Source: Amoebophrya sp. A120
Taxonomy: Eukaryota; Protista; Dinoflagellata
DNA: 64,000 nucleotides
Assembly (NCBI GenBank): GCA_905178155.1
Contig: CAJINV010000001.1
Span: forward strand, 1,433,363 to 1,497,362
Direction: 5' to 3'
Shown here in pieces: positions 8,140 to 35,900 of the stretch. The notes beneath the pieces are model-generated. The model ran no database searches, was not told the origin of the DNA, and worked only from the letters and a program-made list of their open reading frames with translations. Positions within the stretch are counted from its first letter, which is position 1. The number at the start of each line of letters is the position of its first letter. Both the position numbers and the translations under genes were made by a program.

Positions 8140-9581
8140 TGTGTCTTCTATAAAAATACTGTTGTAACGCGGATCGCTTCTGAATCTGATTCTAGATTCT
8201 GAAAAGGTAGGCGGCCTCGGCTGCAAGGGTCTGTCTTGCCGTTAGTCTTGCATCAACTGCAGCAGGTCAAGTAAAGTCTAGCTCCTGTATAGAGCACATT
8301 GTGAAAAAATACTACTATGTGGTCGTCAGTAATAGGACGCATCTATCAGGTATAGAGTGTCTGTGTTGAAAAATTTTGGTACAAGTCACGCCGATGTGAT
8401 CCACGACCTGGACGCACTTAGGCTGCATACCTCCTGCTTCAATGGCACCGACGGCCGGACTGCAAACTTCTTTTCCGTGCAGAGCAGCGCGCTCGTCGTC
8501 TGAGGGGTGTAAGTACTCACACGAAGCAGGCTCGTCGGCGATTGGTGATTCATTTTGAACAACAGAAAGCGGGGCTGACTGGAGACAGACCACTGCTGAC
8601 ATTAAGGTAGATAAATGATATACGCAAGCTTGTAGTAAAGGAGGTTTATATTGATTCATCTTCTCCGCTTCTGTTTTTCCTGACAAATAAACAGCCAGGC
8701 TCTGGCTTCTCCTTCTTTCGGCCTCGATCAGAGTCAGACACCGGGACTGTCTGACTTCGCATCATCGCGGTTCTTGGTTGTGTGATGATGGTGCCAAGAA
8801 ATGTTCTGGCTTGGTTTTTTTGTTTCTTTATTTTGGCATTAGCTCCTCGCGTAGTGTGGGTTGTCGTTCTGTGTGTTAGTGTTTGTGTGTGTGTGTGTCG
8901 TCCTCGTTCTGGCCGGTTGCTTGTGATCATCTTTCCAGTGCGGATAGATTGCTACTGTGACGACAAAAATCGCAAGTTTTTGGAAATCGATGATCTCGAC
9001 TGCCCGAGATCACATGAAGATGACAAGGGAGTTCCAACCTGGTGAAATCGATTTACGCAGCAATCTCGTCGCTTCATCATAAAAATGCTATATCTTCGAA
9101 CACGGTAGCGGCTGCAACTACTACAGCACGAGGCTCGTCGTGGTCTCCTGTCGACACTGGCAACTACCCGAATTGATTCTGCGGCAGGCGTTAGTTGACG
9201 CCGCTTCTGCATTTGTTTTTCATATTATTCAAGGTTGCGAGATAATTACTATCACAATGACGATCAGTGGTCCCGCACTTAGTTGCCCAAAAGATCCTCA
9301 CGCGTGGTTCGTCTCGACTCACCACGGTATAAAGGTAAGTACTTGCTATGTGTCGTAGTTGTCATAAACATTTTCGTTGGTAAAGCTAGTGTCGTGTATT
9401 CGCGTTCAGGGAACTAGGTCATGTAGATGTACTTAATAAAAATACTATAATTACATTCTCCTTCTTTTCAGTAGTTGCAAGTAGAAATGCGATCGATTTT
9501 TTTCGTGTAGTCGTAGTGTCCAGAAATGACTTCGGATTTTTCATGTGCGTGGTCCACGGGCGAAAAGAAATAAAAAGAAAA

Positions 9582-12500
9582 ATGGGTCGTGGAGGAGGAA
9601 AGGGCCGCGGAGGTGGCGGAAAGGGCGGGGGCGGCTACGATTGGCGGCAGCACGTCGAGGCGTCAAGCGATCCGCAAGTGCGAAACCGCGTCTGGATGAC
9701 GATTGATAATTTTTCCAAGAACCCCGCTGCGCAGGAACTTGAGCTCGACTCCTGGCAAGTGCGTGGTCGGGAGCAGAATACCTACAAGCAGATGGTGAAA
9801 GAGTTTCCGGGGATTCACTTCGAGCCGGGGGGCAAGTACCGCGGGGCGCCGACGCTGAAGAAGATCGCAAGGAGAGACGGGACGATGAAGTACGGGGGTC
9901 ATCTTACGGGAAACACGAACAACGGAGAGGACGGAAACAAGAACGAGTCCGCAGCAGGAGTTACGTCGTCCACCTCCCAACACGAACTACATCCCTTCGC
10001 CCGCCTTCGCGACATTTGCGTGGAGATCGTCGGGCTGGAAGCCGCGCAGGCTGAGGACGCCAGCACCGCAAACGGCGCTTGGGTCAAGACCCGACAGCTG
10101 CTTCGGGACGTCCGGCAAAACGAAAAACCGCTGTGGGAGGAGCTGTGCGCCTTCCACAACTTTGCCAGTGCCGGCGACAAGGACATCCGGAATCTGAAGA
10201 GCGAGGACTTGGCAGTGTTCAAGCGCTACTTTGAACTACCCCCAGCCGCGGACGGGTACGACTATCTGAGGCCGCTGCTCTATGGAAGTGTCAGAATCGA
10301 AATTGACAAAATCGAAAAAAAATTTGCGATGCATAGAATCGATACCAGTTGAAGCCTCAGTTTCCAAGTGGCGCATGACAAATTTCGGGAGCACCCAAAT
10401 CCAGCCCGTCACTTTGTTTGGGCAAAGAAGATTAGACTGCTCCTGTCATGCTACTGCGGCAGCACATTGCATATCCCGCCTAAACAGGCTTGCAATCGGT
10501 CTCATTTGCCTGCTCGCCAATACAGGCCTTCAGTGCCCTACATTTTTTGCATCACAAATTTTTCGATTTTGTCGATTTCAATCCTGACACATCCATATGC
10601 TCGACGGGGTGAAGAAGATCCGGAAGACGGAATACTGCAAGCCGGTTTACTACCGCGACGTGGCGAAGTTGCGGGAGCTAGACGACAACCTCGCCACTGC
10701 GCTGAACAAGACGCGGAAATTCGCAGGGCACGCGGGCGGCGGGCACACTTTCGACAAGGATGAGTTTTTGAGCAGCAATTTTGGGAAAAAGAAAAGACGA
10801 GCTGCCCCGGCCGCGCCGAGCGATCATGCCGCCGCGAGCAAAAAGCAAAAAACCGACAGCAGCGGCGAGAGGGATGAAGATTACGAAATGGATCCTGTGG
10901 TCGAACAGCTCTCGTCCAGCGGAGAGGATCTTCAGGTCGACGCGAGAGGGCCTGATGAAGACAGTGTGGCGGAAGATGACGACGAGGAGATGGTAACACG
11001 ACGAGGTGGACCACACGCAGATCTATCGTCCGATGCAAATATAAAAGTTAAGCCAACTCCTGCTGGTTTCGCGCTCCCGACGGTCACCCGCAACCCGTGC
11101 AAAGTGTATCAGGAGCGCGTGCACCTCCGGAAATGGCTCCCCGCCTACAAGGCCGGACGGCAGTTCGTGAGAAGCGTTTTTTCCCACGATGTTGTGGTCC
11201 TCTGCGGCGCGACGGGGTGCGGGAAGACCACACAGCTACCGCAAATTCTCATGGAGTACTGCAACGACACCGACTCTGCAGCTACCAGCGAGGACATCTG
11301 CCGCCGCATCATTTGCACCCAGCCGCGCCGAATATCCGCGACCAGTGTCTGCGAGCGGGTGTGTATCCTACGAAAAAAGTGTTACAGTTACACATTTGTA
11401 GTGAATTCAGCAACACAAATTTTTCTGCATGAGAGAGAAAACTTGTAATGCAGAAATCCTACGAGAAAACACCTATAAAACGAGGCTCCTAGTATGCATA
11501 TCCGGCATGACAGAGCTTTTCTGTCTTGCTTGGCCTGCAACACAATGTGTAATTGTAACACTTTTTTCTTGCGATAGTGTGCTACGAGCGGGGCGAGACG
11601 GTTGGTGACCGCGTCGGGTACCAGATCCGATTCGAGCGGAAGGTGCAAAATGCGGACTGCGAGCTTCTGTACTGCACGGTCGGGATACTGCTTCGCTTCC
11701 TGGTCGGCAATCCGAAGCTGAATGGCGTCGATTTCGTTATCGTGGACGAGGTGCATGAGCGCGGTTTGCACACGGATTTTGTTCTCCTCATCCTGCGCGA
11801 TTTGGTCCGGGAAAGGAAGAAACTCGCGGAAGAGGGAAGGGGCGAATATGCAGTGCAAAAGCATCGTACTAGTATAAATTGCATGGCAAATTGACTTAGC
11901 ATTACAAATCAAATTTGTAATGCGGATTTGCCTTGCCCTTGGAAACAAGATTTGTAATGCAAGACTTGCATTTGTACGAGTCCGATACTTTTGCACGGGA
12001 TAGCGGACCGCTGAAGCTGATTCTGATGTCCGCGACCATCGACGCCAGCTCCTTTTTGGAGTACTTTGGCGAGAAGAACACCGGGCCGGGGTCGATCCTG
12101 AACGAAAGCGAAGGAGCGCGGTTCTCCCGGAACCCGCTCACCGTGGACTTCATCGACCTACCGGGTAAAACAAACTATCCCATCGAGGAGTTCTTCGCCG
12201 AAGACCTGTTCCTCCGTGGGGTTGTGGACCAAAATTTCCACATCAAGGGCGCCCGAGGACCCGGGGAGAAGAAAAAGTTGTGGCGTGGTCCTGGATATCA
12301 AATGCAAATATGTCTGGGTCTGGAAGAATGCAGCCTTGTCATGCATATTTTCCATGCCCCATGGGGTCTGAAATGCAGGGCCTAGCATGACAGATTCTGC
12401 GAAGTCTCTATCATGCCTATCCTGCGTGAGAAACTCCCGCTCATGTTGGTCAAAAAAGGAAAACGCTTGATGATCACGCAACACAGATTTTGGTGTGACT

Positions 12501-15500
12501 CACAGGACGCATCACAAGTTCCATCCTCCCAGGCCCAGACATTTTTGCATTTGATACTGGTGGAGGTGGAGGCCACTGGAACAACCAACAAAGCAGCTCC
12601 ACGACGGTATCAAAAGGAAAAATCCCCCCTCCCCATATTGAAAAGGTATGTTGCCGAAAATTTGCGTTGCTGATTTAAGGTCACAAATCGTCTCTGTGTT
12701 GCATGAAGGCAACGCCACAAGCTCCGCCGCATTCTACAGGCGGTCTGTCATGCTGTTTTAGCTACAGCGCAGACGTCTGTCATGCTAAGCGCCTAGGCCA
12801 AAGCCTGCCGACTCAGGCTCAGTATGTGCCTGCAGTCCTCGCCAGCAAGACAAATCTGATTTGTGTACGCACATCCAGCAGCAGAAGCTTCGTTTTGATA
12901 TGGGGAGGGGGGATTTTTCATTCTGATAGGGTGGCGGGGCCGCGGGTAAGGATTGGCGCAATCCCGATGTCACTGAAAACGACGTGTGGACCTTTCTTGA
13001 TTCCCACGCGAAGGAACAGGTAAAAAGTGGAGTTTTAGTAAAGCAGAATGGTGGACGAGAGGGCGACGTATCTAAGAGCATGGTGATGAACATCTCGAAT
13101 CTCCTACACAGACCCCTGGCCATGTATTACAGTGAAAAATGCCTCCGCCCCAGAACTTGGCAGCATTTGCGTTGCAGACCTTTCCTATGGAAATTTTCCC
13201 CGTCTTGCATGTATCAGCATCACAAATTTTCCATGCTGAAAGTGAATAGCTCAAACCTGTGTTGCAAAGGAGACCAACAGCAGTCGGATCTGTTATGCAA
13301 AAGATGCCTTGCGTGCCCAGATTCTGCATCAGAAAGGCTCGTAGTCCTTTCTTGCAAGACAAAAGGCTTTCAGTTGGAAACTTTGCATGAGAAACTCTTT
13401 CGCACATTCCGGGGTGGGGGCATTTCTCATTGTAATACCATGGACACGGATTTCATCGCGCAAGTTGTGCAGTACATCGAGCGGGAAGAGATGCGAGCTG
13501 CGTACAAGAATGATCCGCATCAAAGGAACAATTATAGGGACAACACCAAACACGATCGTCACCCTTCAACAGCTGCATCCTCGTCGTCTTCCACCCCTTC
13601 CGCCGGCGCCATCCTGATTTTCGTGCCCGGGTGGATGGAAATCACCGACACCATGAAGGCGCTAAAAAAGTTGAAATCTTCCACCCCGGACTTCAGCAAG
13701 AACGGCATCGAGTGGCGGTTCCTGCCGCTCCACTCCATGGTCCCTATGGATTGCAAAAATGTCTGGGTCTGGAAGATTGCAACTTGTGATGCTGTCTTTG
13801 GACTCGAAAAAAATTTGCATTGCATGACCAGCAAGAGGGGTACAATTTGTGTTACACGGACAGGGCATTTCTCATGCAGAACGTGCATCTGGAAGCCCTC
13901 TAAAAGTCTGCGATACTAGGTCATGCATTACAGGCATCATGGGTCATGAGAAATATGCATCACAGATCTTGCATTCTTCCAGACCCAGACATTTTTGCAT
14001 TTGATAGTCCCGCCGAATGAGCAAAATTTGGTGTTCAAAAAGGTGGAGAGGCACGTCCGAAAAATCATCATCAGCACCAACATACGCATTTTGCAAAAGT
14101 CAATCTCAATCGTACTCGTGCTTCTTCTAATCGCAGTCATGCATTAGAAATGTCTTTGTTTGTTCTGTAAGTCAAATCCGCATCAGAAATTTCATTTCTC
14201 ATCATGCTGCGAAAATTTGTAATGCGACTTATACTAGTGCGATGCTTTTGCGTTTGCAGTGCATACATTATTGCGGAAACGTCCGTGACGATCGTATCCT
14301 GGAAAAAAACAGTGTAAGTGTAACTTTGTAGGATGAGCAGCATGACAAATTCGTTTTGCATTACAGGGAAAACCTGTCATGCGCAGCTAGTACGTGGAAA
14401 CACGTACTATGAAAGCAGCCTGTGACCACGCACAGTCCAGCATGACAAGTATAACGGTGTTGCACTTTCTGCATCACAGACTTACACTCACAAAATTTTT
14501 TCCTGCGATAGATCGAAGACGTGGTGTATGTGATCGACACCGGGCTGAATAAGGGAACCACCTACACCCCGGAGACCAACATCGCCGCCTTAGAGACGCT
14601 CCAGTGCGCGCGCAGCAACGTGCAGCAGCGGCGTGGACGCGCCGGGCGGAGCAGGCCGGGGCAGTTCTTCAAGCTGTTTTCCAAATACGAGTGGGAAAAC
14701 TGCATGGCGGACCACGAGGTGCCGGAAATGCTGCGGACGCCGGTGGAGGAGCTCTGCTTGCAGGTGAAGGCACTGCAGCTCCCGGGGCTTCTGTCGATCC
14801 AGGAGACCCTGAGCAAAGCAATCGTGCCGCCGGAGAGACTGGCCGTGCAAAACGCGGTGGCCCTGCTGCAGGCCTTGGGGGCGCTTGTCGTGAACGACAG
14901 AAGTAGTTTTAATAGGGGCCGCGGCGCGGCGAACCCTGTAGAACAAGTAGATCGTCAGCAAGAGGAGCCGGAGTCTCTCACGCCACTCGGGTGGAAGCTC
15001 TCCATGATCCCCTGCCATCCCTGCCTCGGGAAAATGCTTCTGCTCGGAAGCCTGCTGTCGGGCTCCTCAGCATCCACGAACCCGATGAATCAATCGTCGA
15101 ACACGAACAGTAGTTCTAGTTCATCAGCAAGAAGAGGAGTAGGGTTACTAGAACAAGACACTTCTAGCAACATCCACCCGGACCTCCTGTCCATCTGTGC
15201 AACCCTGTCCTTCAAGACGCCCTTTGTCCTGCCCTTCGGCAAAGAAAAGGAGGCTGACGCGGCGAAGCTTAACTTCGGGTTTGGGCTGTGGAGCGACCAC
15301 TTGCTGTTTGCGAAGGTTATCCGCAGCAGAAACGTCGCCAACCCACAGTCAGGATGGGTAAATCTGCTAGACAAATTAGCCAGCTTTGGTTGTTGCGCAT
15401 GACAGCTTTGGCCTCGTAGTGGACTCCTCGACTTAGCTTGTTCAGCAGCATCACAGACCTCGCCTATTATGCTGAGCGGAGCATTACAAATCCCACTAAA

Positions 15501-17223
15501 CGACTAGAAAATGCTTTTCATGGGGGTCCGCATAAGAAACACTTTGAGCATGCGGAATTGCATGACAACTATGTGGTGGGGACGTTTTTACATAGGATAA
15601 AGGTGTACTTCGAGTTTGCGAACAAGTTTCACTGCCAGCCCCACGGCGGCGGGTTCTACGATTGGTGCGACAGAAACTTCCTAAGCAGCAAAACGCTGGA
15701 GATGACGGAAACCTGTCGCAAGGACCTGTTGGGCTACTTGAAGGACCTGCATCTCGACGATGGTAGTAGTGTTGCTCGCCAAGGAAAAATGGATTACAAC
15801 GCCGCCCTGACGTATCCCACGGAAACAAGGCTGTTCTTTCACTGTCATGAGTTTATTGCAAGATCTGCACCTTGTTCACAAGTTGGTTACACATAATGGC
15901 ACAGAGAATTATTTTCCATGCGCGCTTCCCAATTGAAAACACCTTCACTATATATAACTCCAATGTCTTTATGATGCACGATGTGCTGTAAGACAAATAG
16001 CTACTAAGTTTGTAATATTCCATGCTATGCATCACCATGACAGTGAAACAGTTCTTACTTTCGATAGAACTCCTCGAAAGAAGGCGCTGCTGCACTGCGT
16101 GCTGGCGGCGTCGCTGAACTTGGCTGTGCAGCTGCCTTCGGAGCAAGTGTTTAAGGGATTGACCGACAAGGTCTCCTGCCAGCCGCACCCAAGTTCGCTG
16201 ATCAAAAACATCGGTGCCGGGAAAAAACCGAAGAGAACTGCTCGAGGGGCGAACAACAGTGACGGCGCGAAGCTGCACCTGGCGGCCTACTTCGAGCGGA
16301 TGAAGACCAGCGAGGTGTACTTACGGGACAACACCTTGATCCAAGATGTTTTGCCCCTCGTACTCTTTCTCCCAGAAGTGACCCAGCGACAAGAAGTTGC
16401 TCCTGCAGCTATTGAAGACGACGTTGACAAAGACAACTACAGTTCATCAACATCCTGTGTTTTTGAGGTGAAGGGCACGGATCTGCTCATCAGCGTGCCC
16501 CGTCCAGACAACGACTCAGACGTGGTTCTAGCTGTTGATACAGGGCGGGCGGGCCGGGGCCACCAGCACGGGATGAACAAAACCAACGGCGGAAGGAGCG
16601 CGCAAAGTTGGCACAAGAACAACAACGAAAAAGCTTCTTCCTGGGGACAGAACTTCTACGACGACTGGGGAGGACTGGAGGACGACCACATGGATTGGGA
16701 CGATGATGCTGGGTCGTGGAAAGATTTTTACGAAGAAGACCACGACAGGTCGTGGAATAAACAAGTGCAAGATGATCAAAGTGGTCCACGAGGATCGTCC
16801 CCTGCCACATCTTCAGAGGAGCAAATCGCGAACCTGCTCGCTTCCATCCGACAGAAACTGAATACGCTGATTGACCGCACGATCGGCGTTTCTGCGCAGC
16901 ATCTTCCCGCCGAGGTGGGCGCTGCTTTCCACGTGTTGCAGCAGGTGCTCGAGTATGCATTGCAAAAGCATGGTAAGTACTAGTAGAAATCGCATGACAA
17001 ACAATTCTCTAAGCATGAAAAATGGAATTTGTAATGCGGATTCACCTGCGCAAAGAGATTTGTAATGCATGATTGCAATCAGTACGAGTGCGATACTTTT
17101 GCAGTCCATATCGAGGCCAGCTACTCCGAAGCAAATGAGCAGGATGTGGAGTGCTCTGCGTGCGACAAAGTGGAAACCTTTGTGCTGCTGGAACAAGCGG
17201 ATGAACAAGAGGAAGGGTTGTAA
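9582..17223 (+). CDS. DEAH-box RNA helicase, DHX36/DHX57/DHX29-like; 13 exons
   Basis: Motifs [51 protein letters not shown] and an HA2 region; all 12 junctions join in frame; TAA at 17221. Confidence 0.93.
10281..10597. mobile_element. Introner, family D
   Basis: TATGGA.GTGTCAG.AT.GAAAT TIR; TSD TGCTC. Confidence 0.92.
11364..11576. mobile_element. Introner, family F
   Basis: TATC..GAAAAAAGTGTTACA.TTACAC TIR; TSD GTGTG. Confidence 0.9.
11847..12002. mobile_element. Introner, family C
   Basis: Family TIR; TSD GCGAA/GCGGA. Confidence 0.88.
12296..12556. mobile_element. Introner, family A
   Basis: TATCAAATGCAAA.ATGTCTGGG TIR; TSD CTGGA/CTGGT. Confidence 0.92.
12608..12928. mobile_element. 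Introner, family B
   Basis: Family TIR; TSD degenerate; removal restores frame. Confidence 0.85.
13125..13437. mobile_element. Introner, family B-like
   Basis: TATTACA.TGA.AAATGCC TIR; TSD CCATG. Confidence 0.88.
13745..14006. mobile_element. Introner, family A
   Basis: Family TIR; TSD GTCCC. Confidence 0.92.
14083..14265. mobile_element. Introner, family C (degenerate), inside helicase motif V
   Basis: TSD CAACA/CATTA; removal restores STNIAETS. Confidence 0.8.
14295..14510. mobile_element. Introner, family F
   Basis: Family TIR; TSD GATCG. Confidence 0.9.
15318..15599. mobile_element. Introner, family E
   Basis: Family TIR; TSD AAGGT. Confidence 0.9.
15813..16066. mobile_element. Introner, family G
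   Basis: CTGTT..TTCACTGTCATG TIR; TSD degenerate; removal restores frame. Confidence 0.75.
16954..17110. mobile_element. Introner, family C
   Basis: Family TIR; TSD TCGAG. Confidence 0.9.
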
Positions 17224-17950
17224 CCGTAAGTTGCGTAAGCATGGACGACCATTGCTCAGAAGTGTGAAAACTACTAGAAGGTTCTTCCCGCCGGCGCTCT
17301 GGAGCTGGGCCACGGCGCTGTTGTGCATCGCATGTGAAAAGAAAAACTTCGAATTCCTCGAGCGATAGCATTTTCAGGCCCCCTCATGTTCTGGATTGTG
17401 ACGTGAGCATTGTGTAGTAGCTGTTTTCTTTTTCTTTGAGACAAAAGAGCGGACAACGGCGCAACAATCTGGAACGCTTTGCCGATGTTTGGAGTACTAG
17501 TTGGTACTCCGGTTTTGCGTATTTTTTGTGTTCAACAACCGATCTCAAATCGACTTCAACGATTGCTGCATCTCGATACTACGCACGGTCTTAAGTTATA
17601 ACACAAGCGACGTCATTATTTGAGGAGAGAAAATTACTTGAAAACAAACATCGAGATCGAATGCGAGGGACGGTCGAGAAAGTACTAAGGGAGCTGTTAG
17701 AGTTCTAATGTGCGAGTGAAAAGATGAACTCGAGACCGAGAGCAGGGGGAGAGAGCGAGGGAAACTGCGCACACGGTGGAACAGGGCGCAGGAAGTATCA
17801 GGAGAGATGAGACTCTGGACCGCGTTGTATTCATCGTTCTTTATTTATTTTCACCGGAGAGTATTAGAGTGTCGTGTGGTAATGACAACTCGCAGTTTAT
17901 ATCTTCGATCGAAGTACCAGAGAGAGAAAGTACGTAAACGTACGGGCCGC

Positions 17951-20900: not shown

Positions 20901-23900
20901 CGACGTAGCAACGAGGGCGGTTTTCATCGATTTCAACGTACTTACTATTTTTGCGATTTCGATAATAAACTTGTGCATGGTCGTTTGCTAGTATGAAATC
21001 AATGTTGTTGCCCCGGCAGCTGCCTTTGTTTCCGTTTACGCCAGTTGAGATTTGTTTCTTCAGAGTTCGTTGATTCGATTGATGATTATGATCGCAGCAC
21101 CAATAAACTTGATTGAAGTTCTTGTTGTGCATAATTTCGTTCAACACTCGATTTACAGGTTTACAACGTGAATCTCGGGTATTACGGGGCAACGAAGCTG
21201 GTGTTCGAAATAACACCGAGCGGGAAAATGGAGAACCGGCTTGACTTCACCGTGGTCACGGACCGCTACATTGAGCCCAACTTCGATGGCCAGATGATAG
21301 CTGAGATGGTGCTCATACTGTTCGCGGCTTATTACATAGCCCAGGAGCTGTCCGAATTTAGTATCAGCAAAACGGAGTATATGCAGGTAAGAAGGGAAGT
21401 TTTTGTACTTGTATCATTGTAGAAGTGGAGATCATGAAATAAAAAGTAGAAATAGATTTAGATGCTTATAACAAGAATAACTGTCGAGTAGCTAAGAATT
21501 TTCAAAATCGTTAGCTAGCTTTCAAAAAAGCATGTTGTAAATACCACCTCTGCAGGTGCGGAATAGATATTTAATTAGCTAGTAGGAATGCTGTCACGGA
21601 TGCGTCTCGTAACGCCGAGGGAGAATCAGCACGGTACTGCGTCGAATGCCATGATTTTGGATTTGTGTTGCATTATTTGAAGGACTACGACAGCGGCACT
21701 ATATCAGGTGGCTTACAGCTACTCGGTCTGCTACATAAACCTAAGCTTCGGTTGGAAAAAATAACAATTGAATCGGGTTAATAAAAAGCATTTTGCAGTA
21801 TGTGTTTTGCATGGGGAGAGGAGAACTGTGATATTATAGGGAGCATGAATGTGATGGATTTTGAAACTAAAAACAGGGTCCCTTTCGTGTGGTTCTTTCG
21901 ATGTTGTTGTGTGCACTTCTACGACCTCTTGAACGTATTTCAATTCCTCATCTCAGTCGTACGACATCATCTATTTTACGACTTACAAAATGGGAACACA
22001 ACCGCACGAGATTGAGAAAAAGGCACGTCGCGAATTTGCATCAGACATTTTGGAATGGTTTGATTTGAAATTTATCTTTGAAACCACAAGCGACGTATTT
22101 ATCCGACCGAAGCTGAACGCTTTTCCTGATCATCCCAGCAACGCGGAGCACTATGCTGGGATACAGCTGAAAAGTACGAAGCAGTGGAGCGGTGATTTCG
22201 AGCGCCGCATCAAGTTCATTTTGTGCAACGAGGGGGAGCGTCTTCATGGAACTATTTTGGTCGGCACCAGCCTCGACGACACGGACAAGTACTTCGTTGA
22301 TGTTGTCCACAGAGTCGTGGACTATTCGGATTTTGACGTAACAAGTTCGGTGGTGACGAAGGAAGAGCTGCCGGCCCGCTTGCGTCGTCTGTGGGGGTGC
22401 AACATGGTCGTTCGCCACATGATGGTTGGAGCACTGTTAAATGCTTACAGCCAAGAAACTCTCGTCGAGAAATCGGCGCGGGACTTGTTCATCAAGCAGA
22501 TCGAAGAGACGGACTTGGTGTACGAACCTGCTACGACGGAATTCGACGCCATCGATGGCCAGCTGTATCACAAATCCAATCCAGATCAGAAGTGGGCGGT
22601 ACAGGAAAAAACTTTGTATTGGCGGAAGGAGCACGGGAAAAGCCTCAATCTCCGGTGCTCGCTGAAGCGGTACCACTTAGCGCGTTCGCAGTTTTTCACT
22701 TAGTCTTGCATGAGCTTCCACGCACTGCTGCTCCCTGCTATTTCCATGACAATTAACTGCCAGGTCGCGCGGCAAAACATACAAGGTTGACGATGCTGAT
22801 TTTCTGCTGGTGCATTGTCGTACGAAGCCGGTCGTTGGAAGCTTCAACGAACTGCACGGCAGCGCCTTGATTCCGTTCCGCACCCTCCACGAAACAGGCC
22901 ACGTTGGAGACGAAGAGAGGTACTACCATTATTGCATATTATCATTGAAAAATTAGTGTGAGCTTGATGCTTGTTTAGTGCATAGCAACTACTCATAGAA
23001 ATGCGATAGTCAAACAGAATGAAAACACAATAAAAAAACAATTATCATCCAGCGCGGGCAAGAAAACGCTGGATCTGTATCCGAACGCACCGGGAGTAAA
23101 AAAACCAAGACTGGAGGGAGTTCTTGAGCAGTACTACGTGCATGCTACGACCGAGAGCTCATTTGCCACCAGGCTGACGTCGATTCTGAGCGACCACGTG
23201 AACGAGTCCCAATCTTCATCTTCTTCTATGCAGTAACAGAACCAAAACGACGATGAACAACAACAAAAAACAGGACGATGATGGTGGTGCAATAGAAAAA
23301 CCCATACGAAGGAACACACAATCAACACGAAGGAATTTTTGTCATGCGAAACGCGTGCAGGATGTTGCTCCTGCAGCGGCTAAGAAGTAGTTTGCATCGA
23401 TTGGGAGTTCCAGTGCAAACAAATAATTATTTTTATGTTGTGACTTTGAGTCTCACTTGCTACAAGTTGTAATGCGAAATCCAGGTTTTACGAAATGAAA
23501 CAAGAACTAACAAAAATAGAAAATCATTAACATTTAATTTTTGAATTCTCTTCTACGGAGTGCGTATCTCTAGTCAACAGCAGATGGTTTATGAAAGTGA
23601 AATCTGAGACGAGGTGGCAGAGAAGTTTGTCATGCTAAAGGGACTATGGATATATACAAACGGCCGCATCACAAGCCTAGCCATCGTCTCAGCTTTCTTT
23701 CCATAAGTTTCACCGCTGAAGTTTCGGGGGTATAGACGAGAGGTATTTTTTTTGAATACGAAACTATTAATCTGTGCAGTCAAAATCAACTTCTGCACCA
23801 AATAAAGTTCTGCTGCTATTCTTGTACTGAAAAAGTGCACTGCAGCTTTTCACAAAGCGTATAATTATAATTTTTATATTACTTTATATTCATATACTCT

Positions 23901-26900
23901 TGCCTTCGTCTCACCAGTGTCAGGTGCTATTCTTGCTATGGTCCGCACAACCTTGCCGAAGACCAGTTTTGCAATATCAACAGTCGAATTTGTCATGCGC
24001 ATTGCCCTTCTGTGACAACGTACGGAAATCGACAAAAATTATTTGCATAAAAGCCTTGCGATTGTGCCTTTTTGGAAATGTCTCAAAGCAGTGATTACAC
24101 GCATGACAGATTGGCAATTTTGGTTGGGCATAGGAAAGGTTGTCTGGTTGCATAATGCTGTAAAAATAATCACTTCACGTCGTGAAATTGACCAGTGCTG
24201 CGACCTGATACGAAGAACAGAAAAAAGAAAAATCAAATGATTAGCTCAAGAGGCTGTTTCCTGTTTTTTTCTCTATGGTGCACTTCTTGAGATGCTTGTC
24301 CCAGGACTCGATTGCATTCTTGTGTTCGGCGATTTGCTGCGACGACCGCTTGTTGGACTTGCGGTTCCCGTACGCCTCCAAGAACCCCTCGTCGCCCGGA
24401 AGATCACTTGCGGATCTCGGCGAGACATGATCGAGCAAGTCCATCTGCGTCCCGTCCGCCTGCGATTGGGCTTCTTCATCCCCTGCTTTCCTCCGTCGCG
24501 GTCCGTCGGCCTTGATCCAGTCAGCAGCTAGCGCAGTTTCGAACACAGAATCCGGAACCGGAATAGCCTTGTTCTTGTTCGGCCCTGCACCGTCGTCGAT
24601 CCGCCGAGTCTCGAATTCATCTTTTTCCAGATCGAATTCCGCGACGACAAACGGCAGCAAATCGCTCACGACGTTTTTGGTGACGTCGCCACTCACGCCG
24701 CACTCCGGGCCGTACTTGACGTGGGTCGGGATGTAGGTGTCGCACCAGCCCAACCGGATGGTGTCGCTCACCAGACCTTGCTGATTGCGGTGCGACTTCA
24801 TGGTTGCGATTTCCTTTGGCAGCAGATCAGCGAGCGAAACCACCGAGTACTGGTACACCGACTGCAGCCGTTTTACCCCGTCCATCATGGTGCTGATGAC
24901 TCCCTTCGGACGACCGAGATGTTCTTGCGGTGCCAGAATACGCGGGTTTTTCTTCTTCTTCTTCTTCGCGAAGATTCCAGCACCACCAAGCTCTTCTTCA
25001 TCCACAGCAGTAGTCAGGGTGACGATCCGGGTCGCGAACTCGTGGTCAATCGGATCACGCGATATGAAGTTGGAAAACCCTGACCACACAAAAAACGCTC
25101 TATGAAATAAAAGTAGCATGACAAAGTAGACAAGTTTGCCACTGCATGAACATGTTCGGTATTTGTCATGCTAGAACTACGTACAACCACAGCAGAGCTT
25201 TATCATATAGCGTTTTTTCGTGGTCAGTGGTTTTTAGAGGAGATATCGTTTGCCATGCACTGGAAGAGGCACAACTTGTTCTCGCTGCTGAGCAAGTTCA
25301 GGTGCTTATCCTTGACGAACGGAAATTTGGTCTGGATTCCCTGCAGTAGCCCGAGCTGCAGCGCGTCGGGGATCGTCGGAAACATCAGCGGCATGTAGAT
25401 CGCGGGCGTGGACCACAAGTTCGAGGCTAAAAACACCTGCGTTGGCTCATCGCCAGTTTTCTGCCGGCGCACAACGCCCTCGTAGGTCCGCAACTGCGTG
25501 AACAAAAACGGCTTCTTCTTCTTCGGTTCCGTAGTAGTTGGAATGCGGAAAGTCATCGGTCCGAGCCGACTGAGCTCGACCGCCTGAACCCAGCCGCCCA
25601 TCCAGTTCGACAGGCGGTAGTGCGTAGCGGTTTCCTGGGGTTGATCGACGGGATGGGCGATAACCCAGGTCTCGACGTCCTTGATCTTCACCTCGATGTC
25701 GCGGTCCGCGCCGAATCGGTTACCCAACGCTTCGTAGCCGCGGATCTGGTCTTTACTGATGAAATCGCCGTTCATGATGACTTCGGCTTTCGCGGCGCGG
25801 AAGCCGTACTGGTGCGCAGCAACAGACGTGAATTGCTCGGAGATCGTGTGGTCCAGTATGGTCCGGACGAGTTTCGGAAGGGATTTGTACTGTTTCCAGG
25901 CGTTGTGCGCGGAAAATTTCAAATCCTTGAACGCCTTGGTCAGCTCGGTGCCGGAATCTTTGCCGAACGTGCGCTGCTGGGCGTTGTCGAATAGCAGGTG
26001 CGACAGGTCTGTGCCAGTGGGTGTACTTCCCTTGCGCTTCATCAGCAGCTTCAGCAGTGTGGATATTTCGCGGGGAGTAAGCAGCTCCAGCGCCTTCGGA
26101 TCGCCGACCCGCTCCGGTTCGTACATCCGGTTGTGCATGGCAGAATACGCGATCCTGTGCACCTGCTTGCTCGTCATCAGACCGTCTGCTTTCTGGCCTT
26201 TCCGCTGGGTCACTTTCATCTCGCGAAACTGACCTTCCTGCCAGAACTCGGTGATGGGGAGACAGCGGACCACGCGGATGGACCATCTGTTCAGCAGCTT
26301 CCGCGCGTGTTCTTCCGGCAAAGAAAATACCGCGAGTACGTTCGTTTTCGCCGACACGCCCAACTCGTAGATGCAGAGATCGCCTAGTTTCTCGGCTTGT
26401 TCCGGCGTGATTGTGGTGTGTCCGTAGCCGAAGGACTCGAAGAGGCCGAAGCTGGGATCTCCGACTTCGTAAAACCACTGGCTCACGCACCGCTGCATGC
26501 AGAACCACGCCGGCCCCTCGTGCAGCTTGGATTTGTGGTATGCAGAACAGAAATCGTCCACCAAATTGACGAACGTTCTGTTGCGGTTTTTACTGCGACT
26601 GCGCTGCACGATTTCGGTCGGAAGCGCAGTGTTCATCTTCGCGTCGGGATCGATGTACCTCTTGTAGGAGTTGTGCAGCTCCTTGGTCCTCAAATTCGGA
26701 TAGCACTTGCCACACTTCTCCAAGTGCAGGAGCAAGGTGTAGTACGTGAAATGGCCGCGGACGACGTCCTGGTGGACGCCGAACAAGTAGTAGTTCAACT
26801 CCTTCAACTCCTTGTACATTTCCGGATGGTATCCGAGCCAGCCTTCCTTCTGCAGCTTCTTCCGCAGCGCGACGTCGGGTTGGATGAAGATGGGTTCATT

Positions 26901-29900
26901 ATTCTCCACGAGAATAGCGTCAGTGCGCTTCTTGGTGAGGTTCCGTAGAATGCAGGTGAAACTGTGCATGACAAATCATCTGAAGATCTACCTGAAATCA
27001 TAAATCAAAGCAACCACTTTTGTCATGCAGAAACAACACTCTTCAGATGATTCCATATGCACGATTTCACCTGCATAATGCGGCCTTTAACCTTCTCACG
27101 ATCCGCCAGCGCGCAGATGATAAACCGGGTGAGCCAGTACGATACCTGCATCGTGTCGCACCACAACCACATACCGAAGAACCGCGACGCCGCGCAGTGG
27201 AAGGTGCTATAGCCTGGTATTATGTGATTTTATCATATAAAAACGATGCAATTCTGTAACCTCAGATGAGGGCCTCCGGAGGGGGGCCTAGACCCCCCCC
27301 CTATAACCCCCCTCTATAGAACGCCTTCATTTTTCTTCGCCGCGTGGTATGATGGACTCAGGAGGGGTACCGAGACCCCCCCCCTATAGGGTCGCCTATA
27401 CCCCGTCATAATGCTTCATAATAATTGTTCCATTTCGCCTATTCTGAAAATAACAAAAAGGTGCAACAATACGTGTCGCAAGCGCCGACTTCACCGTGGA
27501 AGAATTCTGCTCTTTCAGCAGCTCCTTCCGGTATTTTCGCTTCAACGACGCCGGCTTATCCTTCACCTCCTCCTCCACGAGTTCGTCCTTTGCGAGAAAA
27601 AACTCGCCTTGGTTGTTTCCCTTGTTACGCGGACCAGTGGCCCAGTGGTCGAGCATGTCTTTGGCGGTGACAAGTCCCGGAACGCAGTTTTTGCAGTTGT
27701 TGGAGTGGCGATGCAACGGCCCAAAGTGGGTCGTTCCCGGCAGGAACAGCTCCTGACTTTGACCTGCACGAGAACCGTCTCCGCCTTGGTCGCTCATGGT
27801 GTGAAACTCCAGCAAGGGCTTCGTCGTTTTGTCGAAGTTTATCAACCACTCCGTATCCATGTCGCGCCAGCTCCTCTCCTTCGGCACAAACCGGGCCTGC
27901 AGCGCGGCATACCCGAACTGGGTAAAGAGTATACAGTGCCAAGATGACCACTTATTTGCTATTTTTGTGCTGCGTAGTTCCATGCAGAGTAATATTATTC
28001 ACGATGGTGTTGTAGAGGACAAAAATAGCAAAAAGTGGTCACTTTTGCATTCGATATTCCACTGGTCGAGGTAGAGGTGTCCGATGTACTGGGATTTCTT
28101 GTTCGGCGCCTTCGACGTCAGCTGCGCCAAGCCGCCAGTCTGTATTGCGTTCGGCTGCAGAATCTGCGACAAGAATCCCGGCTTCTTCGGCGGAATACCG
28201 TGCTCCGGATTCTTCGGATCCACATCGGAATAGTAAATGAACTGGTTATTTGATGTTTTATATGATTGTATTCCCATGCAGCATAAGATTATGCGCGACG
28301 GTATGACGCTACTTGATCAACAGCAAGTATGCACATCTTCATGCACGTGATAGCATGGCGGATAACTTTACTCACGGTGGAAAATCTATAGGTACCGCTG
28401 ATCCCCACGCACCCTGTGATCGCACCGTGGACGAATCCGCCAGCAGACAAACAGGACCTTCTCTTGCACCACAGTCGACGCGAAAAACTTCCCGAATCAA
28501 TTTGTATTCCGGATCGTTCTCGTCTTGGGCGGCAAATGCGCGGTTCAGGATGACGAATTCGCCGTAGCGGCGCAGCGCAGCACACTGTTTTTTGATATCG
28601 ATTGCTCCATGCAGAATAGCATTATACTGCATGGCACTATATGCGTGCTTCTTATCATCATCGTGCCATGCGGGATAATATCATGCACGGTGGAGCTGTT
28701 GCGTTTACTGGTATCCACAAATACTGCCGTCGTGGATAATCTTATGCTGCGTGGTATGATCGATATCAAAAAGCAGGAAAAACACCTGTGCTCGCTTGCT
28801 GTTGTCGTCGGCGCCGGGTCGGCCCAGCAGCTGTATTGCCTTGCGTCGGATGTGCTCCACGGACAGCCAAAGGTTCAGAACGTCCAGGTCCGCCAGCTCG
28901 TCGCGGAAGTTGCAATTCCCGAACTTGGCGTAGACCACTTGCTTCGACTGCGTCAAGCGGTGCCACAGGTAAATGAATGCCTTGTAGTATTCGTGCATTA
29001 GTATTTGTTATGCAGCAGTAGTGTCATGCGGAATAACATTATACTGCATGGCATCATGGCTCCAAAATTCCACATACCAGATCCCATTCGTCGCCTGTCA
29101 TCTGCGGGCACCACGTGATCTTCCCGTGCTTCCACAGATCCCTCGGAGCCGTCACTTTCAACCAGAAGTCGTATCCTCCGGGTGACGGAGCAAGACTCTT
29201 CGTCTTGTACTGCGGACGGCCCGTGTGCGGGCAGCGGATGGGAACGTCCCATCTGGTCGCCCGCGACTTCCGTTTCTTCTTCGGCGAAATGACGACGGAC
29301 GCGGCGGAATCATCGCTCGAAGACACGTCTTCGACGCCGAGCAATTCTTCGAGAAGCCAGTGATCCTTCTTCATCTTGATTGGCGGGTCCAAATGCAGGC
29401 TGACGTAGTAATCCACCGGAATAATCCGCTGACCCTCCTTGTCAGCGGGCGGCTCATCGGGATCCAGCTGCAGCCGCGCAGGCGGCAGCTTTGGCGGAAG
29501 CATCATCGCGTGATGCTACTTTATCTCATCTCTCAGTAGTATCAATCAGCACAAGACTACGGGCGTAGATGGAGGCAGATATATGATGAGGACCTGGAAG
29601 GTTGGTTATCAAGACGTCGCTACTGCACATCTCTCACGGCCCCTGCGACAGCGACCACTTGTACGACCCAAATTGCACATCCACATTGACCGACACATTC
29701 TTCACCCAGAAACCGAGCAATCACATCAAGGCGCACCACAGACGCATCAACACTGCCTTTCGCAGCTTCAGGTACTTCAATTTTTGATTAACATCACGTC
29801 AGAATAGTGAATTCAATATGCGGCTCAGCTGTTGCGAAGTCTTGTGCATTGTCATCACGTATTCTGTCTCACAGGAGGTTCGTGCGCTTCGCATAAAAAC

Positions 29901-32900
29901 ATAATTTTTTGTCACAAAGACAGCCACGGCGCGCGTAACTGCCTTCGTAACGAATGCGGTGGTGTTGGGTAGTCTACTATTTTCATTTTTTAATGTAAAA
30001 GTAAAATTAATTTTTTACAATATATCTGTGCAGTTATTGATAAAACTGCCACCATCGGCACCGAGATTGATGGTGGCTCAAAATATAATTTGATATTATC
30101 AAAATATCATTTTTTCATTTGTAAAAACAACATAATGCGAGACCACCAGCTATATAGAGACTTGAAACGACATCAAGTATGGCAAGGAAAACACAGCCTC
30201 ACACGTAGCAGCTCTTCAACGACGACGTGCTTTGTGATACATATTTGCATACCTAGTTTCTAGGTCGTATTGGTGCAGTGTGAGGCTATGTTTTCTCACA
30301 TGATACTCTGGTGGTCCCACAGAAACATAGAACCAGGACGCACTGTCCTGGAACAGAAGATCGAGCCGAAGTGTCAGTCACCTACGGCAAGGCCTTTTTC
30401 ATCATTTTCTTCATGGCCTTCGACGAAGAAGACGGGACCTGCGAGTGCGACGCGCGGGACTCACGCTTCATCGCGGTCTTCATCTTCCCCTTCAACGCCT
30501 TCTCCGCGTTCTTGATGTCCAGCGCGTCCTCCTTGGACTGCTCCTTCGACAACTTGGCGATCTCGGCCATGATGCGCTTGTTCTCCTTGGTCTTCTGGAT
30601 CGCCTGTTTCTGCTGGCGCGGAGAGGCCATGAAGTCGTCGATCGCCTTCTGGTCCTTGGGGCCCAAGATGGCCTCCAGCGCGTCCTGCATCTTCTCCTGC
30701 GGGGTCTTCGCCATGGGGTCGGCACCCTCGTGGATCGAAATGCGCGCTGCAATATGCTATGCAAAAGTGTCAGTTTCATATGGAAAATTCGATATTCAGC
30801 ATGACAGACAAGAACGCGGCTTCTAGGCATAACATGCGCGTCGCTATCGCGACACAAATACCACAACGTGCGCAGTTTCAGCACGTCGTATTTCATGTAA
30901 ACACGTGTTGCGCGTGGTCACATACGAGCCTATTTGAAGATACCGAATCTGCATACACAACTAGCACACGAACGAGTACACTTTGACCGAATTTTCCACA
31001 TGAAGCTGACACTTTTCACAACGCGTAGTGCTTGCCCTCGTTGTCCAGGAAGTCCAGCTTCAGGGGGACCGGCGCGACGGACGCCTGCATCTCCTCCAGG
31101 CGGGTCTTGGCCTTACCGACGGAGGCCTTCTGTTCCTTGATCGCGGAGGCCACCTTGTCGTCGGCGGCCTTGAAGGCGGTGGGGTTCACGCCCTGGGACA
31201 TGGTCTGCGAGTTGGTGGTCGGCTGGGACGCGGAGGTGACGACCGGCTGCATGAGCATCTGTGTTGGATGTTCAATCACAAATTCGGATTTGGTGGTGAC
31301 AATACGAAAGATGAAAACCGATTTTTTTCTTTACGACAGCATCAACTCCAACTACAACATCTCCGCTTGGAAAGCCGACTTATTTCTGTTCTACGATAGC
31401 AACTACATTACCTGTCCGTTGGGTCCGGGGGTCATCTGAAAGACCATCTGCTGGGACTGCTGCATGCCCATGTTCTGCGAACCGAGCGGGGTCATCCCGA
31501 CAGCGGGGGTCATGCCGATACCGGGGGTCATGCCCATACCCTGGGTCATCGCGGGGGTGGTACCCATGCAGGACTGCATCGACTGGGCCTGGGCGACCTG
31601 CGCGTTGGCCACGTTGGTGGCACCGTTCTTCGCGGAATTGGCCAAGTCGATCTCATCGGGGGTCGGGCAGCGGGTGACGGCCAAAACCCACTGGGGCGAC
31701 TTGCCGCACTTCGACAGGGCCAAGGCGGTGGTCTGCAGGTTGCGGAACCGGGCAACCGGACACTTCTCGATCAGCTGTTGTTGGTGTCGAGGAGGATAAT
31801 GTTGTTCATCAAAGTTAGCAATACGATATCCACGTGCAAACTCTATGTGGGAATACAGGATTTACAGCGCCATATGTGTCATGCGTATTTGTACTATGAA
31901 AAAGCATGACGCAAACACAAACTTGTAATGCATGTATACCAGGTGGGGCGGCACACGCATCTCGATGAGCAGCCATTTCCACTGGATCTCGTGGTAAATC
32001 CACCGGCACACCCACATAGCAGATTTCCGGCACAAAGTACTCAACAAGATCTGGCAGATTTCCAAGGGCAACTCACCATAGCCTGAAGGTGTTTTTGAGG
32101 AGAAAATTATATGAGATGATAATCATGTGGGGAAAATTCACAAGCACAAAAAATCTCTCACTCTCACTCAGCAAAGGTGTGATGGAAAACATGCATATTC
32201 TATACGGCATGGCACATGCCCCAAGTCCTCCATCGAAACAATTCCTGCATGCAACACAAGGTGTGTAAGCCAACGTCTACACTTACGTTGGAGAGAGCCG
32301 GGAAACGCTTGGCGCGACAGCTGATTCATCATGACAAACCCGTGCTCCTGAGCACTCAGCTCCTCCTCCAGATCTTCCATCACAGCTTTGTGCAACGCAA
32401 TGTCTGCGGTACTCATTTTTCCGACCTGGGCCTTGATAAATTCAAGGGCTGACTGAGGCTGCTTCTTCGGCGGCATTATGTGTTTGTTTGTCAAGCTGTC
32501 AGCGTATAGCCGATGCTGAAAAAAAACTGCTCTCTCACGTGAATTTCCCCTACGGTTTTTCATTGAGTGGCCAATTGAAAAGAAGGTTGGATGAAAACAT
32601 GTGCTATGCGCTATGGTGATGAAATTTCGAAGACGTAAGAAGACACAACTACTTGACACGGAAAGCAACTCAATCGCCCGGGGATCTCACACGCAACTCA
32701 AACTTGGAAAGCGGAAGTACAACATTGACTTACGGGGATCTATTTTGTGGAGGCAAAGTACGGAGGAGATGCTGCAATACGGAAACAGATCAGGTAGTTC
32801 GTTTTCTTTCTCGACTTCACTAGAACAGACAAATCAGAAAAACATTTTAGAATTTGGTGTTGACAACATTTGAGAATTCTTGTTCGTAATGCAATGCAAA

Positions 32901-35900
32901 ACAATATTAAGGCTTGCACACGTCTGAATTCAATTTCTAGTCAGGCACTTATCCGTTCCACACATATTTTTCACACAAACTCATGTCCACAACACTTCAA
33001 CATCATTCGCTCCTCAGGTCCACTCCCGTCGTCCCACCTTCGGCTGGTCCATAGGCTACGGCGTCGCCAGGGTTTAGCGTTATGAGACGCATCCGTGACA
33101 GCATTCAGGCTAGCTAGTTCATCGTGCTAATAGCACCGTAAATACAATGCAAACAAGTAGCTATTTTTAATAGCTAGCGAATGATTTTGAAAATAGCTAG
33201 CTACTCGACAGTTATTCTCGTTATAATGCTGTGAATGATGCGAAAATGGAACGAATTCCTCACGACTCACGTTGATCTGGAACGCGGGATAGCCGTTCTT
33301 GGCTTTGTTCCAAAAACTCACGCTGAGACGAGGAAAGATATTACTTAAGTACCCCATGTACCGCATTTGAAAAAAAACACACACAGGACGGCTGGAACAT
33401 AATGGATTGGGCAAACCTGATACTGCTCATCGTGTACGCGATCATGCGCGTCCTGGCATTCAGCACCGCGGGCGGGTCGGTGAGCACGGACATCGCCAAT
33501 CAGGCGATGCTGTTCGACTTGACCAAAATAGCCTACTATATCAAGGAGATGCGGAGTTGGAACGCCTACAACGCCGTCTTGATTTGGGTGAAAACGGTGA
33601 AGTATGTTACCTTCATCCCCTACGTGACCATCATGATGCACACACTGAAGTACAGCTGGAAGTTCTTCATCTCCTTCGCCGTCATCTTCTTGTCGATCTT
33701 CCTCGGCTTCTCTGTGGGCTTTGTCGGAGGGTATAGTTTAGATAGGGGATCGATTGTTTCTTTTATTCTTTGCCTTGAACTACAATTGGAATAAGTTTGC
33801 TGACAAGAAGTTCTTCATCTTCGTTGTACATACTAGGTGCAAGGCATATCTAAAAAAAAATAATCCCTCGTCGGCATTTGTCGACAGAAACATCATGCTT
33901 CTAAGAAGATGAAATGCAGCTCTTGTCTTCTTCTGAGCCGCCTCCATCTTGGTAGCCCGTTGTTCTTCACGATGGAACCTTCTTAGCATGTTGTTTTTGT
34001 ACTAAAAAAATCTGCAAACGAACCAGGTTCGGCGACAAATTCGAAAAAGTGAACACGTTTGGGAAGGCCTCTTTGTTTCTCCTGCAGTCATTATGAGAAC
34101 GCACAACTTCTCCCCCTCTCCGCCGCGGCCCTCATCTGTCATGCAAAAACCCAATATACGTATTCACCCTTTTCCCCTTATGTCGCAGTTTGCATGACAG
34201 GTTTCTTCCGGGAGCCCAAACAGCGCTACAATCCTGAGTTGCGATTTGTCATGTATGAATATAACAGGAATCTCAACTGCACTCTTAGATCTCAACGTTG
34301 AGACCTCACAGCTCAACGTTGAGAAATATATCTCAACGGCCGGCTCACGAAATCGATGCCGCCTGCTCCACTAGGGTTTCGGGTTTAGGGCTTGGGGTTT
34401 AGGGTCGTCGGGCAGGGCAGCCGCCGCCGGCCGGCCGGCCGGCGGCGGCTGCCCTGCCCGACGATTCTCTTCTTCTGCCCTTGTGCAGTGCCTTCCCGGC
34501 GCGCGTGCTCCCGTTGCGCCTTGTGCTTTTCTAATTGTGTGGCCTTCGTTTCCCGCCCGGTCTGTTGCTCTGGTTTTTCCATGGGGCTGCAGTCTTTTGC
34601 GCCGGTGAGTTCTTGGGCGTGTTTTTCGTTGAGACCAGTCGTTGAGCTCATCGGAAAGTCGTTGAGGCCTATCAGGCCGTTGAGATGCACTTGTTGAGAT
34701 GAAACCGTTGAGATTCCTGTATAACAACCAATATAAAACCTGCACAACTTCGCTTGCCCATGCTTCTCTTGCTGCTCATGCGTAGCGTATGCACCATTAC
34801 AAATGGCTTCGGTTCAAATCAGATTATCAAAATGAAATCAGATTATTACAATCAGGCTAGTTGTGCAATCAAGTTACTGAATTCAGAATATCACTGAAAT
34901 CAGGGGTCTGGGTAGGGTTTGGGGTCTAGGGTTTGGGGTTTCTGGTCGTCGGCCAGGGCAGCCGCCGCCGGCCGGCCGGCCGGCCGGCGGCGGCTGCCCT
35001 GGCCGACGACGCTGTCTTCTCGTTGTTGCGCCAATGCGCCCCGGCGCCTCGCCCGCCCTTCTGCTTGTGCTCTTGCCCCGTCGGGGGTCTCGCTGACGGA
35101 CCCCGCCGGACAGCTCCTTGGTCGGCTGGGCGCGTCACTGATTCCGGCGGACCGTTAGGGCCGCCCGGCGTGCGTTCGTTCAGGTTGGTGTAGACACTTC
35201 GCTTCCTTCCTAAGTTGTTTCGCTTCTAGTTGAGTCAACTTCAACAAATCTGATCTCACAAAAAATCTGATTTCAGTAACCTGATTGCATTTCGTAATCT
35301 GATTCCACAATTTACGCAATCTGATACGACCAGCGTCCATTACAAATGAGGGGGAGCAGCAGGAGGGGTAGTTGTGCGCTCTCATACTCGTTCGTCGGCT
35401 CTGCTTCCTTCGGGGAGATGTACAAGCTGTCACCGATTTTGGCGGGCGTTTTGATCGGGATGTTCATCATTTATCCTGAGTGAAAACGTCCCCACACCAG
35501 AGTCAAGATGGGGAATCTGCTAGACAAATCAGCCAGCTTTGGTTGTTTTGCATGGCAGGTTTGTCCTTGTATTGTAGTGTTGTTTATTGAGGTAGTTCAG
35601 CAGCATCACAGATCTAGTGCATCATGCTGATTGAAGAGTGACAAACTCTAAAACACGATACGAGCAAAATGCTTCTCATGGGGCTCCGCATGAGAAACTG
35701 AAACACTTTCAGCATCATGCAGATCTGCGTTACAACTATGGGGTGGGTGCCACGTTTTTAAATATGATATCATTTTGATTTTCTTCATCCTGCTCAACTT
35801 GTTTATGGCGATCATGGTAGTCGTATCAACTGCAAAAATGTCTGGGTCTAGAAGAGTGCAAGTTTGTCATGCTTGTCTGGCATGACTCTCAAATCTGTGT

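Follow-up and report, generated by a model that had tools for sequence, protein, structure and literature searches.

The window analysed here, a stretch of 64,000 nucleotides from contig CAJINV010000001.1 of the dinoflagellate Amoebophrya sp. A120, is eukaryotic, gene-dense and rich in repeats of 150-400 nt with inverted ends. On its minus strand, from position 29506 to 24241, lies a gene of eight exons which we interpret, with a probability of about 85%, as encoding the DDE (Asp-Asp-Glu) cut-and-paste transposase of the 11.8-kb element that encloses it, and as belonging to an Amoebophrya-wide hAT-like lineage that likely moves TAT...ATA introners, the small elements that form introns in these genomes, in trans. 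As judged from aligned sequences and from the modelled fold of a relative, the protein resembles a hAT transposase in its putative catalytic triad, in a histidine following the second aspartate, in an RW pair, in an E-x-x-F motif and in its predicted architecture. An earlier inspection of the DNA letters (the original prediction) had proposed a divergent hAT-related DDE transposase at this locus, which conservation among homologues and the fold search bear out.

The eight exons join as one stop-free reading frame of 1,366 amino acids, all on the minus strand. Exon 1 (29078-29506, residues 1-143) contains a block, residues 79-110, that is kept in relatives, and exons 2 (28786-28980) and 4 (28057-28241) were placed by frame and by alignment to relatives. 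Exon 3 (28396-28584) carries the codon of D258 (28437-28435), the predicted first catalytic aspartate, exon 5 (27473-27924) those of D378 (27791-27789) and H404 (27713-27711), and exon 6 (27078-27213) the pair R494-F495 (27184-27179) at the position of the hAT RW motif. Exon 7 (25246-26943) encodes the predicted helical insertion domain, E761 (26249-26247), E765 (26237-26235) and the start of a C-terminal extension, the remainder of which follows in exon 8 (24241-25057) with a conserved S-H-R...G...R..W block and the stop at 24241. The GC content at third codon positions in the frame of the model is 0.69-0.82 in seven of the eight exons and 0.56 in exon 3, and the GC content of the introns is 0.37-0.47. 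The spliced model is colinear with a protein of Amoebophrya A25 over residues 79-1295 (E 7e-73); the exon pieces therefore form one gene and not separate transcripts, in agreement with the proposal of a gene split over at least eight exons.

Taking introns 1, 4, 5, 6 and 7 each for a TAT...ATA element with 5 additional nt (ATT in the case of intron 6) preserves the frame, and introns 2 and 3 can be read as GT-AG introns. Intron 4 (27925-28056, minus strand), a TAT...ATA inverted repeat plus 5 nt, resembles an introner most clearly. For none of the seven introns do the flanking 5-mers match as a duplication, so the insertions are old or altered and their borders may be off by a few codons; the splice sites carry the same uncertainty because no RNA join was observed within the gene, and at junction 2 the relatives point to a few additional residues. 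Introns 1-4 (27925-29077, minus strand) have a 29-nt CATGC-rich internal motif in common, which suggests that they form a related family or that the motif is a signal for splicing; all introners are rich in GCATG. Within intron 5 a 40-nt sequence containing G/C runs is directly repeated (27266-27388), and 23 of its bases match another contig of DNA run X1.

A HMMER search over 1.84 billion representatives retrieved 22 relatives of the protein, the best with E 6.8e-38. An organism is assigned to 15 of the 22, in every case Amoebophrya (one sequence from A25 and 14 from AT5.2), and two cluster members (P0024 and P0025) come from an Amoebophrya transcriptome assembly. Identity to the relatives is 17-25%, except for two short fragments with 44-47%; these closest relatives, P0003 and P0015, are short NCBI pieces, each from a 6,716-bp contig, and match exons 5 and 4. 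A quick tree with long branches, from which seven short or duplicate rows were omitted and which was used solely to establish deep paralogy, places at least 14 paralogues in AT5.2, as expected of many transposable element families. The original prediction had warned that sequence comparison could easily miss such an enzyme, and most searches were indeed silent: word-based homologue searches with exon 7 (two length ranges) and the exon 4-5 region found nothing, the sequences of the Protein Data Bank (PDB) gave no match to exons 5 and 7 or to the family profile, and viral contigs gave none to exon 5. Four metagenome-contig matches of 20-28 residues were treated as chance, and the ESM Atlas returned just weak look-alikes (0.78-0.81) for one relative, with all leads below 0.9.

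Conservation was counted over 21 relatives after three near-duplicates had been dropped, and since some of these are fragments the number of sequences differs between positions. D258 is present in all eight relatives that reach it and ends strand 1 in the model of the A25 relative; D378 is aspartate in 15 of 15, H404 is kept in 14 of 14, with a spacing of 26 residues from D378 in every relative having both, and R494 is kept in 15 of 15. The two aspartates, the histidine and the arginine were all picked correctly in the original prediction, whose six motifs all occur on the minus strand, in the order and at the positions given; that these four residues are invariant at 17-25% identity is more than chance would produce. 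The case was different for the glutamate. The two proposed candidates, E898 in SEQFTS (25838-25836) and E1213 in PECGVS (24705-24703), are kept in only 2 and 6 of 17 relatives and were rejected, and both E761 and E765 (PITEFWQEGQF) are present in 16 of 16 relatives, in a region that forms the last core helix of the model of the A25 relative. Plant hAT transposases are described as having the series D, D, R, W/F and E with an invariant F/W three residues past the glutamate (Ac 722; PMC6027215), and because position 768 is F in 13 and W in 3 of the 16 relatives, E765 was chosen as the likely catalytic glutamate. A shuffle of the motif series (0/5,000) is not evidence, as the pattern was written post hoc and included the wrong glutamate. 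A further motif, D-P-x-F-G-x-x-E-S (D691-E698, 26436-26459, minus strand), has its D and E in 18 of 18 relatives; although invariant, D691 and E698 were not accepted as catalytic since the model places them within the helical insertion domain.

The spacings between the putative catalytic residues are 120 residues from the first to the second aspartate, 26 from there to the histidine and 387 from the second aspartate to the glutamate, as compared to 66, 37 and 352 in Ac. From the first aspartate to the glutamate the protein spans 507 residues, against 392 in Hermes and 418 in Ac, and 601 residues follow the glutamate, with conserved columns extending to about residue 1,235. The protein is thus enlarged, as had been proposed, but its size comes mostly from a C-terminal extension of about 600 residues and not from long insertions within the core. 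The C-terminal part of about 500 residues (24241-25700, minus strand) is conserved in the family (for example R1158, S1183-H-R1185, G1189, R1196, W1199 and P1212) and matches no known family; this extension of some 500-600 amino acids is a new region on a hAT-like fold.

A single-sequence AlphaFold prediction of exon 7 was unusable (predicted local distance difference test score, pLDDT, 35). The fold was modelled on the core (residues 209-774) of the A25 relative P0002 from a 24-row alignment, with pLDDT 80.4 and a predicted template modelling score of 0.83. The model shows three strands, a helix, a strand ending at the second aspartate, a long all-helical domain and a helix with both glutamates, that is, a predicted RNase H core interrupted by an insertion domain made up of helices, and it is closest to Hermes. 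With Foldseek, 11 chains of the PDB were found at E<=0.001, of which the ten listed are all Hermes (best E 9.1e-6), and the next other entry stands at 0.085; the RNase H-like fold and the likeness to Hermes anticipated in the original prediction were thus recovered in the model of P0002. A second aligner (VIA) superimposed the whole model on Hermes residues 155-608 with Z 15.2, a root-mean-square deviation of 4.9 and 347 aligned residues, and gave Z 8.7 for ISCth4 and 7.3 for Transib. A search independent of Foldseek over 48,161 representative chains again put Hermes on top (Z 14.5), followed by ISCth4 (8.2) and the P element transposase (8.0); the aligned residues number 343-354 for Hermes and 209-271 for the other transposases. 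The helical content of the model can raise Z, yet the ranking still lists DDE enzymes in order and the strand core is covered. In a viral structure library the sole match at E<=0.001 was a Pandoravirus hAT protein.

Membership of the hAT superfamily in the strict sense is a separate matter. The exons, fragments and 24 relatives gave no hAT domain (PF05699, DUF659, DUF4371, DUF4413) in Pfam at E<0.1. The Cys or Asp expected three residues before the histidine is missing (Gly in seven, Pro in five and Ala in two of 14 relatives, Gly in the window), and no C-x2-C...H-x3-5-H/C pattern of a BED zinc finger occurs in the N-terminal 260 residues of the window protein or of six relatives, nor was there a Pfam hit for one. 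The element ends in TATAAC, of which just TA agrees with the hAT terminal consensus (T/C)A(A/G)NG given in PMC6027215, and its target-site duplication of 5 bp lies outside the usual 8 bp of hAT elements and within the 5-7 bp of hAT5, hAT6 and hAT7. Because the cysteine, the BED finger, the terminal consensus and a Pfam match are all missing, we assign the protein to a new hAT-like lineage, known from Amoebophrya, and not to canonical hAT or hAT5. The proposed alteration of the CxxH and RW motifs thus applies to the former, where the cysteine is replaced by Gly, Pro or Ala; the RW pair is kept (W in 13 of 14 relatives), with F only in the window copy, a residue allowed in plant hATs. From the hAT5-style features suggested earlier the 5-bp duplication stands, and nothing else ties the element to hAT5.

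The missing Pfam domain and the missing cysteine of the C/DxxH motif would also suit a transposase that is no relative of hAT and comes from one of the other DDE superfamilies with a helical insertion (MULE/IS256, P element, Kolobok, KDZ or Transib). Transib makes 5-bp duplications according to PMC1131882, IS3EU elements have TAY ends, though with 6-bp duplications, and the Kolobok, KDZ and IS3EU enzymes are absent from the listed structures compared. We nevertheless regard this explanation as highly improbable: the Z scores of ISCth4, P element and Transib fall 6-7 units short of that of Hermes, which is aligned along the full length of the model, and the invariant R-W and E-x-x-F/W are characteristic of hAT (PMC6027215).

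The gene lies within a terminal inverted repeat (TIR) element of 11,759 bp (21467-33225) with TAT...ATA ends, flanked by a perfect 5-bp target-site duplication, ATGCT, at 21462-21466 and 33226-33230 (read on the plus strand); an exact 5-mer match at fixed ends is expected by chance at about 1e-3. The TIRs of about 150 bp (left, 21467-21615, plus strand; right, 33077-33225, minus strand) are alike in 27 of their 30 outermost bases and in 75% across 151 nt, and contain three and five copies of the subterminal repeat TAGCTA, of which there are none in the 11.4-kb interior. The element sits in a 12,000-nt GT-AG intron (21387-33386, plus strand) of a host gene for a polycystin channel, recognised by its Pfam domains (PKD_channel, E 1e-8; Polycystin_dom, E 1e-7), the flanking exons of which are joined without mismatch by contigs of runs X6 and X8, which we guess to be RNA from one sample. 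The contigs of X6-X8 cover the host exons and not the interior of the element, which has no bearing on expression either way. DNA run X1 covers the interior with a single contig whose depth equals that of the unique flanks (23), and depth rises to 68 in the bins that contain the element ends; the interior is accordingly single copy, with further copies of the ends at other places.

Three other genes, none of which matched the libraries searched, share the element. The first (21990-22956, plus strand, probably two exons) found no counterpart in Pfam, PHROGs or the PDB sequences, and its product resembles, by eye, tandem PD-(D/E)XK nuclease domains. The others are a lysine-rich open reading frame (ORF) of 110 amino acids (30382-30714, minus strand) and a gene with roughly four exons and repeats rich in Met, Gln and Thr (31016-32476, minus strand); between these two lies a 29-nt inverted repeat (93%) at 30763-31016. 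With such company the DDE gene might be a domesticated or passenger hAT-derived cargo, the element being moved by another of its genes, such as the nuclease-like one that begins at 21990, or by another locus. The single-copy interior, the three additional genes, the large conserved C-terminal extension and the seven introns fit this explanation, which we consider very unlikely all the same: the predicted catalytic residues are all intact, no other gene of the element has a DDE fold, and many divergent paralogues per genome suit transposable element families better than one tamed gene.

The small TAT...ATA elements of the window are introners. Among inverted-repeat pairs, counted with the palindrome at 34400-35010 excluded, an exact 5-bp duplication accompanies 11 of 63 pairs that start with TAT and 5 of 3,879 others. 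In a relaxed scan of the window, 25 small elements combine TAT...ATA ends with a 5-bp duplication, and no other of the 64 trinucleotides exceeds three at that length. Six joints were examined in RNA-like contigs, of which three excise a small element with one copy of the duplication (for example the element at 15318-15599, plus strand, which is excised exactly), one is degenerate and two are GT-AG. A host gene for a DEAH-box helicase (9390-17421, plus strand) has among its introns TAT...ATA elements spliced with one duplication copy. The ends of the small elements share a profile of TAT followed by C/G and then, at positions 11-15, by an A-run; the introners also carry repeats of the GCATG type, and the commonest ones in the window GCATGACAAA-type repeats. 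Two other features occur in the window. An element of a second kind, with CAGGAATCTCAAC inverted ends and a 5-bp TATAA duplication (34265-34719), lies in the region 34265-35000 and overlaps telomere-like TAGGGTTT arrays and long GGCC palindromes, and an ORF at 2471-3514 (plus strand), which Pfam matches weakly to RNase H (E 7.6e-4), is probably a non-LTR (long terminal repeat) retrotransposon remnant.

The large element and the A120-type introners have the same terminal trinucleotide and the same duplication length, and we consider it probable that the transposase family mobilises the introners. That the window copy alone is their mover is unlikely: because its ends differ from theirs beyond TAT, it is probably not their direct master. 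Alternatively, the hAT-like transposase would move its own few TAGCTA-type elements, the introners having spread by an unrelated enzyme or an RNA route and the TAT/5-bp signature being incidental or historical. The large and small ends agree in the first three bases alone, the TAGCTA repeat differs from the introner repeats, a blastn comparison of the large TIRs with the introners of the window gave nothing at E<0.5 beyond short hits, and the introners of A25 start with TTA, those of A120 with TAT (PMC7789003); Farhat et al. also argued against a general transposase-mediated mobilisation. On the other hand, it is established that the superfamily sets the duplication length and the terminal bases, TAT alone among 64 trinucleotides pairs with the 5-bp duplication in the window, and the deep paralogues of a single strain, at least 14, could explain many end types. 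The argument of Farhat et al. was moreover based on a search for Repbase domains, and Pfam and PDB sequence profiles miss the family. A separate mover of the introners is therefore a possibility that we take seriously but hold to be unlikely.

Hermes excises its element by way of hairpins formed on the flanking DNA. By analogy, the Amoebophrya enzyme may bind the subterminal TAGCTA repeats through its N- or C-terminal parts and pair the two ends, whereupon D258, D378 and E765 would cut with two metals, H404 would act at the scissile phosphate and R494/F495 would serve the flank hairpin; insertion would occur at a 5-bp stagger. Short derivatives that keep the ends could then have been moved in trans, and splicing that removes an inserted small element with one duplication copy would restore the gene and leave a new harmless intron. 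Probably every family recognises a subterminal repeat of its own, and introners of the GCATGACAAA type would be served by a paralogue and not by the window copy.

Several observations weigh against the interpretation of the gene and its lineage given here. The fold was modelled on P0002, which is 24% identical, and not on the window protein; the Foldseek TM-scores (template modelling scores) to Hermes are 0.29-0.34 (best match 0.33) at 9% identity, and the choice of E765 over E761 follows from spacing, not from model coordinates. The window copy has G383 where 14 of 15 relatives have E, and F495 where 13 of 14 have W, and so deviates from its family at two conserved sites. The large element matches the small-end profile in TAT only, with A at position 4, a base found there in none of 50 small ends, and its ends score -3.4 and -5.0 on this profile, values reached by 15-20% of the TAT sites in the window. 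Recent activity lacks support, given the single-copy interior in run X1 and TIRs just 75% alike overall. The relatives are known from protein sequences, and only the A120 window copy has been shown inside a TIR element.

Amoebophrya genomes contain tens of thousands of non-canonical inverted-repeat introns. Farhat et al. (2021) reported two putative transposases in A25 and, within their search for Repbase domains, none in A120, and took this absence to exclude a general transposase-driven spread (PMC7789003); one of the two A25 proteins could be the relative P0002. Gozashti et al. (2025) left the superfamily of the TIR introners unassigned: in their Dataset S2 (PMC12130899; 60 of its 85 'hAT' hits, spanning all Amoebophrya rows, and 30 of the 60 A25 rows) none of 58 A120 and none of 60 A25 families is listed as hAT, and for one A120 row the terminus was automatically matched to hAT5/hAT6. 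A description of an Amoebophrya hAT-like transposase family was not found in the literature searched, Repbase and subscription papers being outside its scope. The window thus offers a concrete candidate enzyme family, invisible to profile searches, together with an intact element, for the question of intron origin in Amoebophrya, which becomes directly testable. We lean, with some reserve, towards the broader proposal that an undescribed hAT-like branch of superfamily rank, with TAT ends, 5-bp duplications, a histidine motif without Cys, no BED finger, a large C-terminal domain and cargo genes, is the missing engine of the introner explosion, its paralogues, each reading its own repeat, having made tens of thousands of introns and having been invaded in turn.

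Compared with the introners described for Amoebophrya (PMC7789003; PMC12130899), the window element has in common the TAT-starting inverted repeats and the short direct repeats seen at intron borders in A120. The introners are non-coding, in the window mostly 150-400 nt long, form introns and are spliced out with one repeat copy, unlike the 11.8-kb coding element, which sits inside a canonical intron. Among characterised enzymes the closest is Hermes of the Ac family (PDB 4D1Q, 6DWZ, 8EDG), with which the protein shares the predicted RNase H core with an all-helical insertion, the putative D-D-E triad, a histidine soon after the second aspartate, the R-W/F pair (R318-W319 in Hermes) and the aromatic residue three positions past the glutamate; the Hermes-type histidine is reported to contact the scissile phosphate (PMC7780238). 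It differs from Hermes and other hAT transposases by its 9% identity, by the lack of a Pfam hAT match and of a BED-finger pattern, by Gly, Pro or Ala in place of Cys and by the additional C-terminal 500-600 amino acids, and the element by its TAT ends, its 5-bp instead of 8-bp duplication, its length of 11.8 kb and its three cargo genes. The hAT5 elements, placed within the Blackjack/animal hAT lineage (PMC12730594), likewise make 5-bp duplications and have ends starting with TA, but the Amoebophrya family, which is known here from Amoebophrya alone, shows no similarity to any hAT profile tested; the common duplication length, compared without hAT5 sequences, may be convergent. ISCth4 of the IS256-MULE group, the P element and Transib have the RNase H fold, the helical insertion and a conserved histidine as well (Z 7-9; PMC7780238), with far lower structural scores and fewer aligned residues (209-271), and IS3EU elements, whose TAY ends fit TAT, make 6-bp duplications as opposed to the 5 bp found here. 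The hAT-like fold is thereby extended to an enzyme with a 5-bp target-site duplication and a new C-terminal region.

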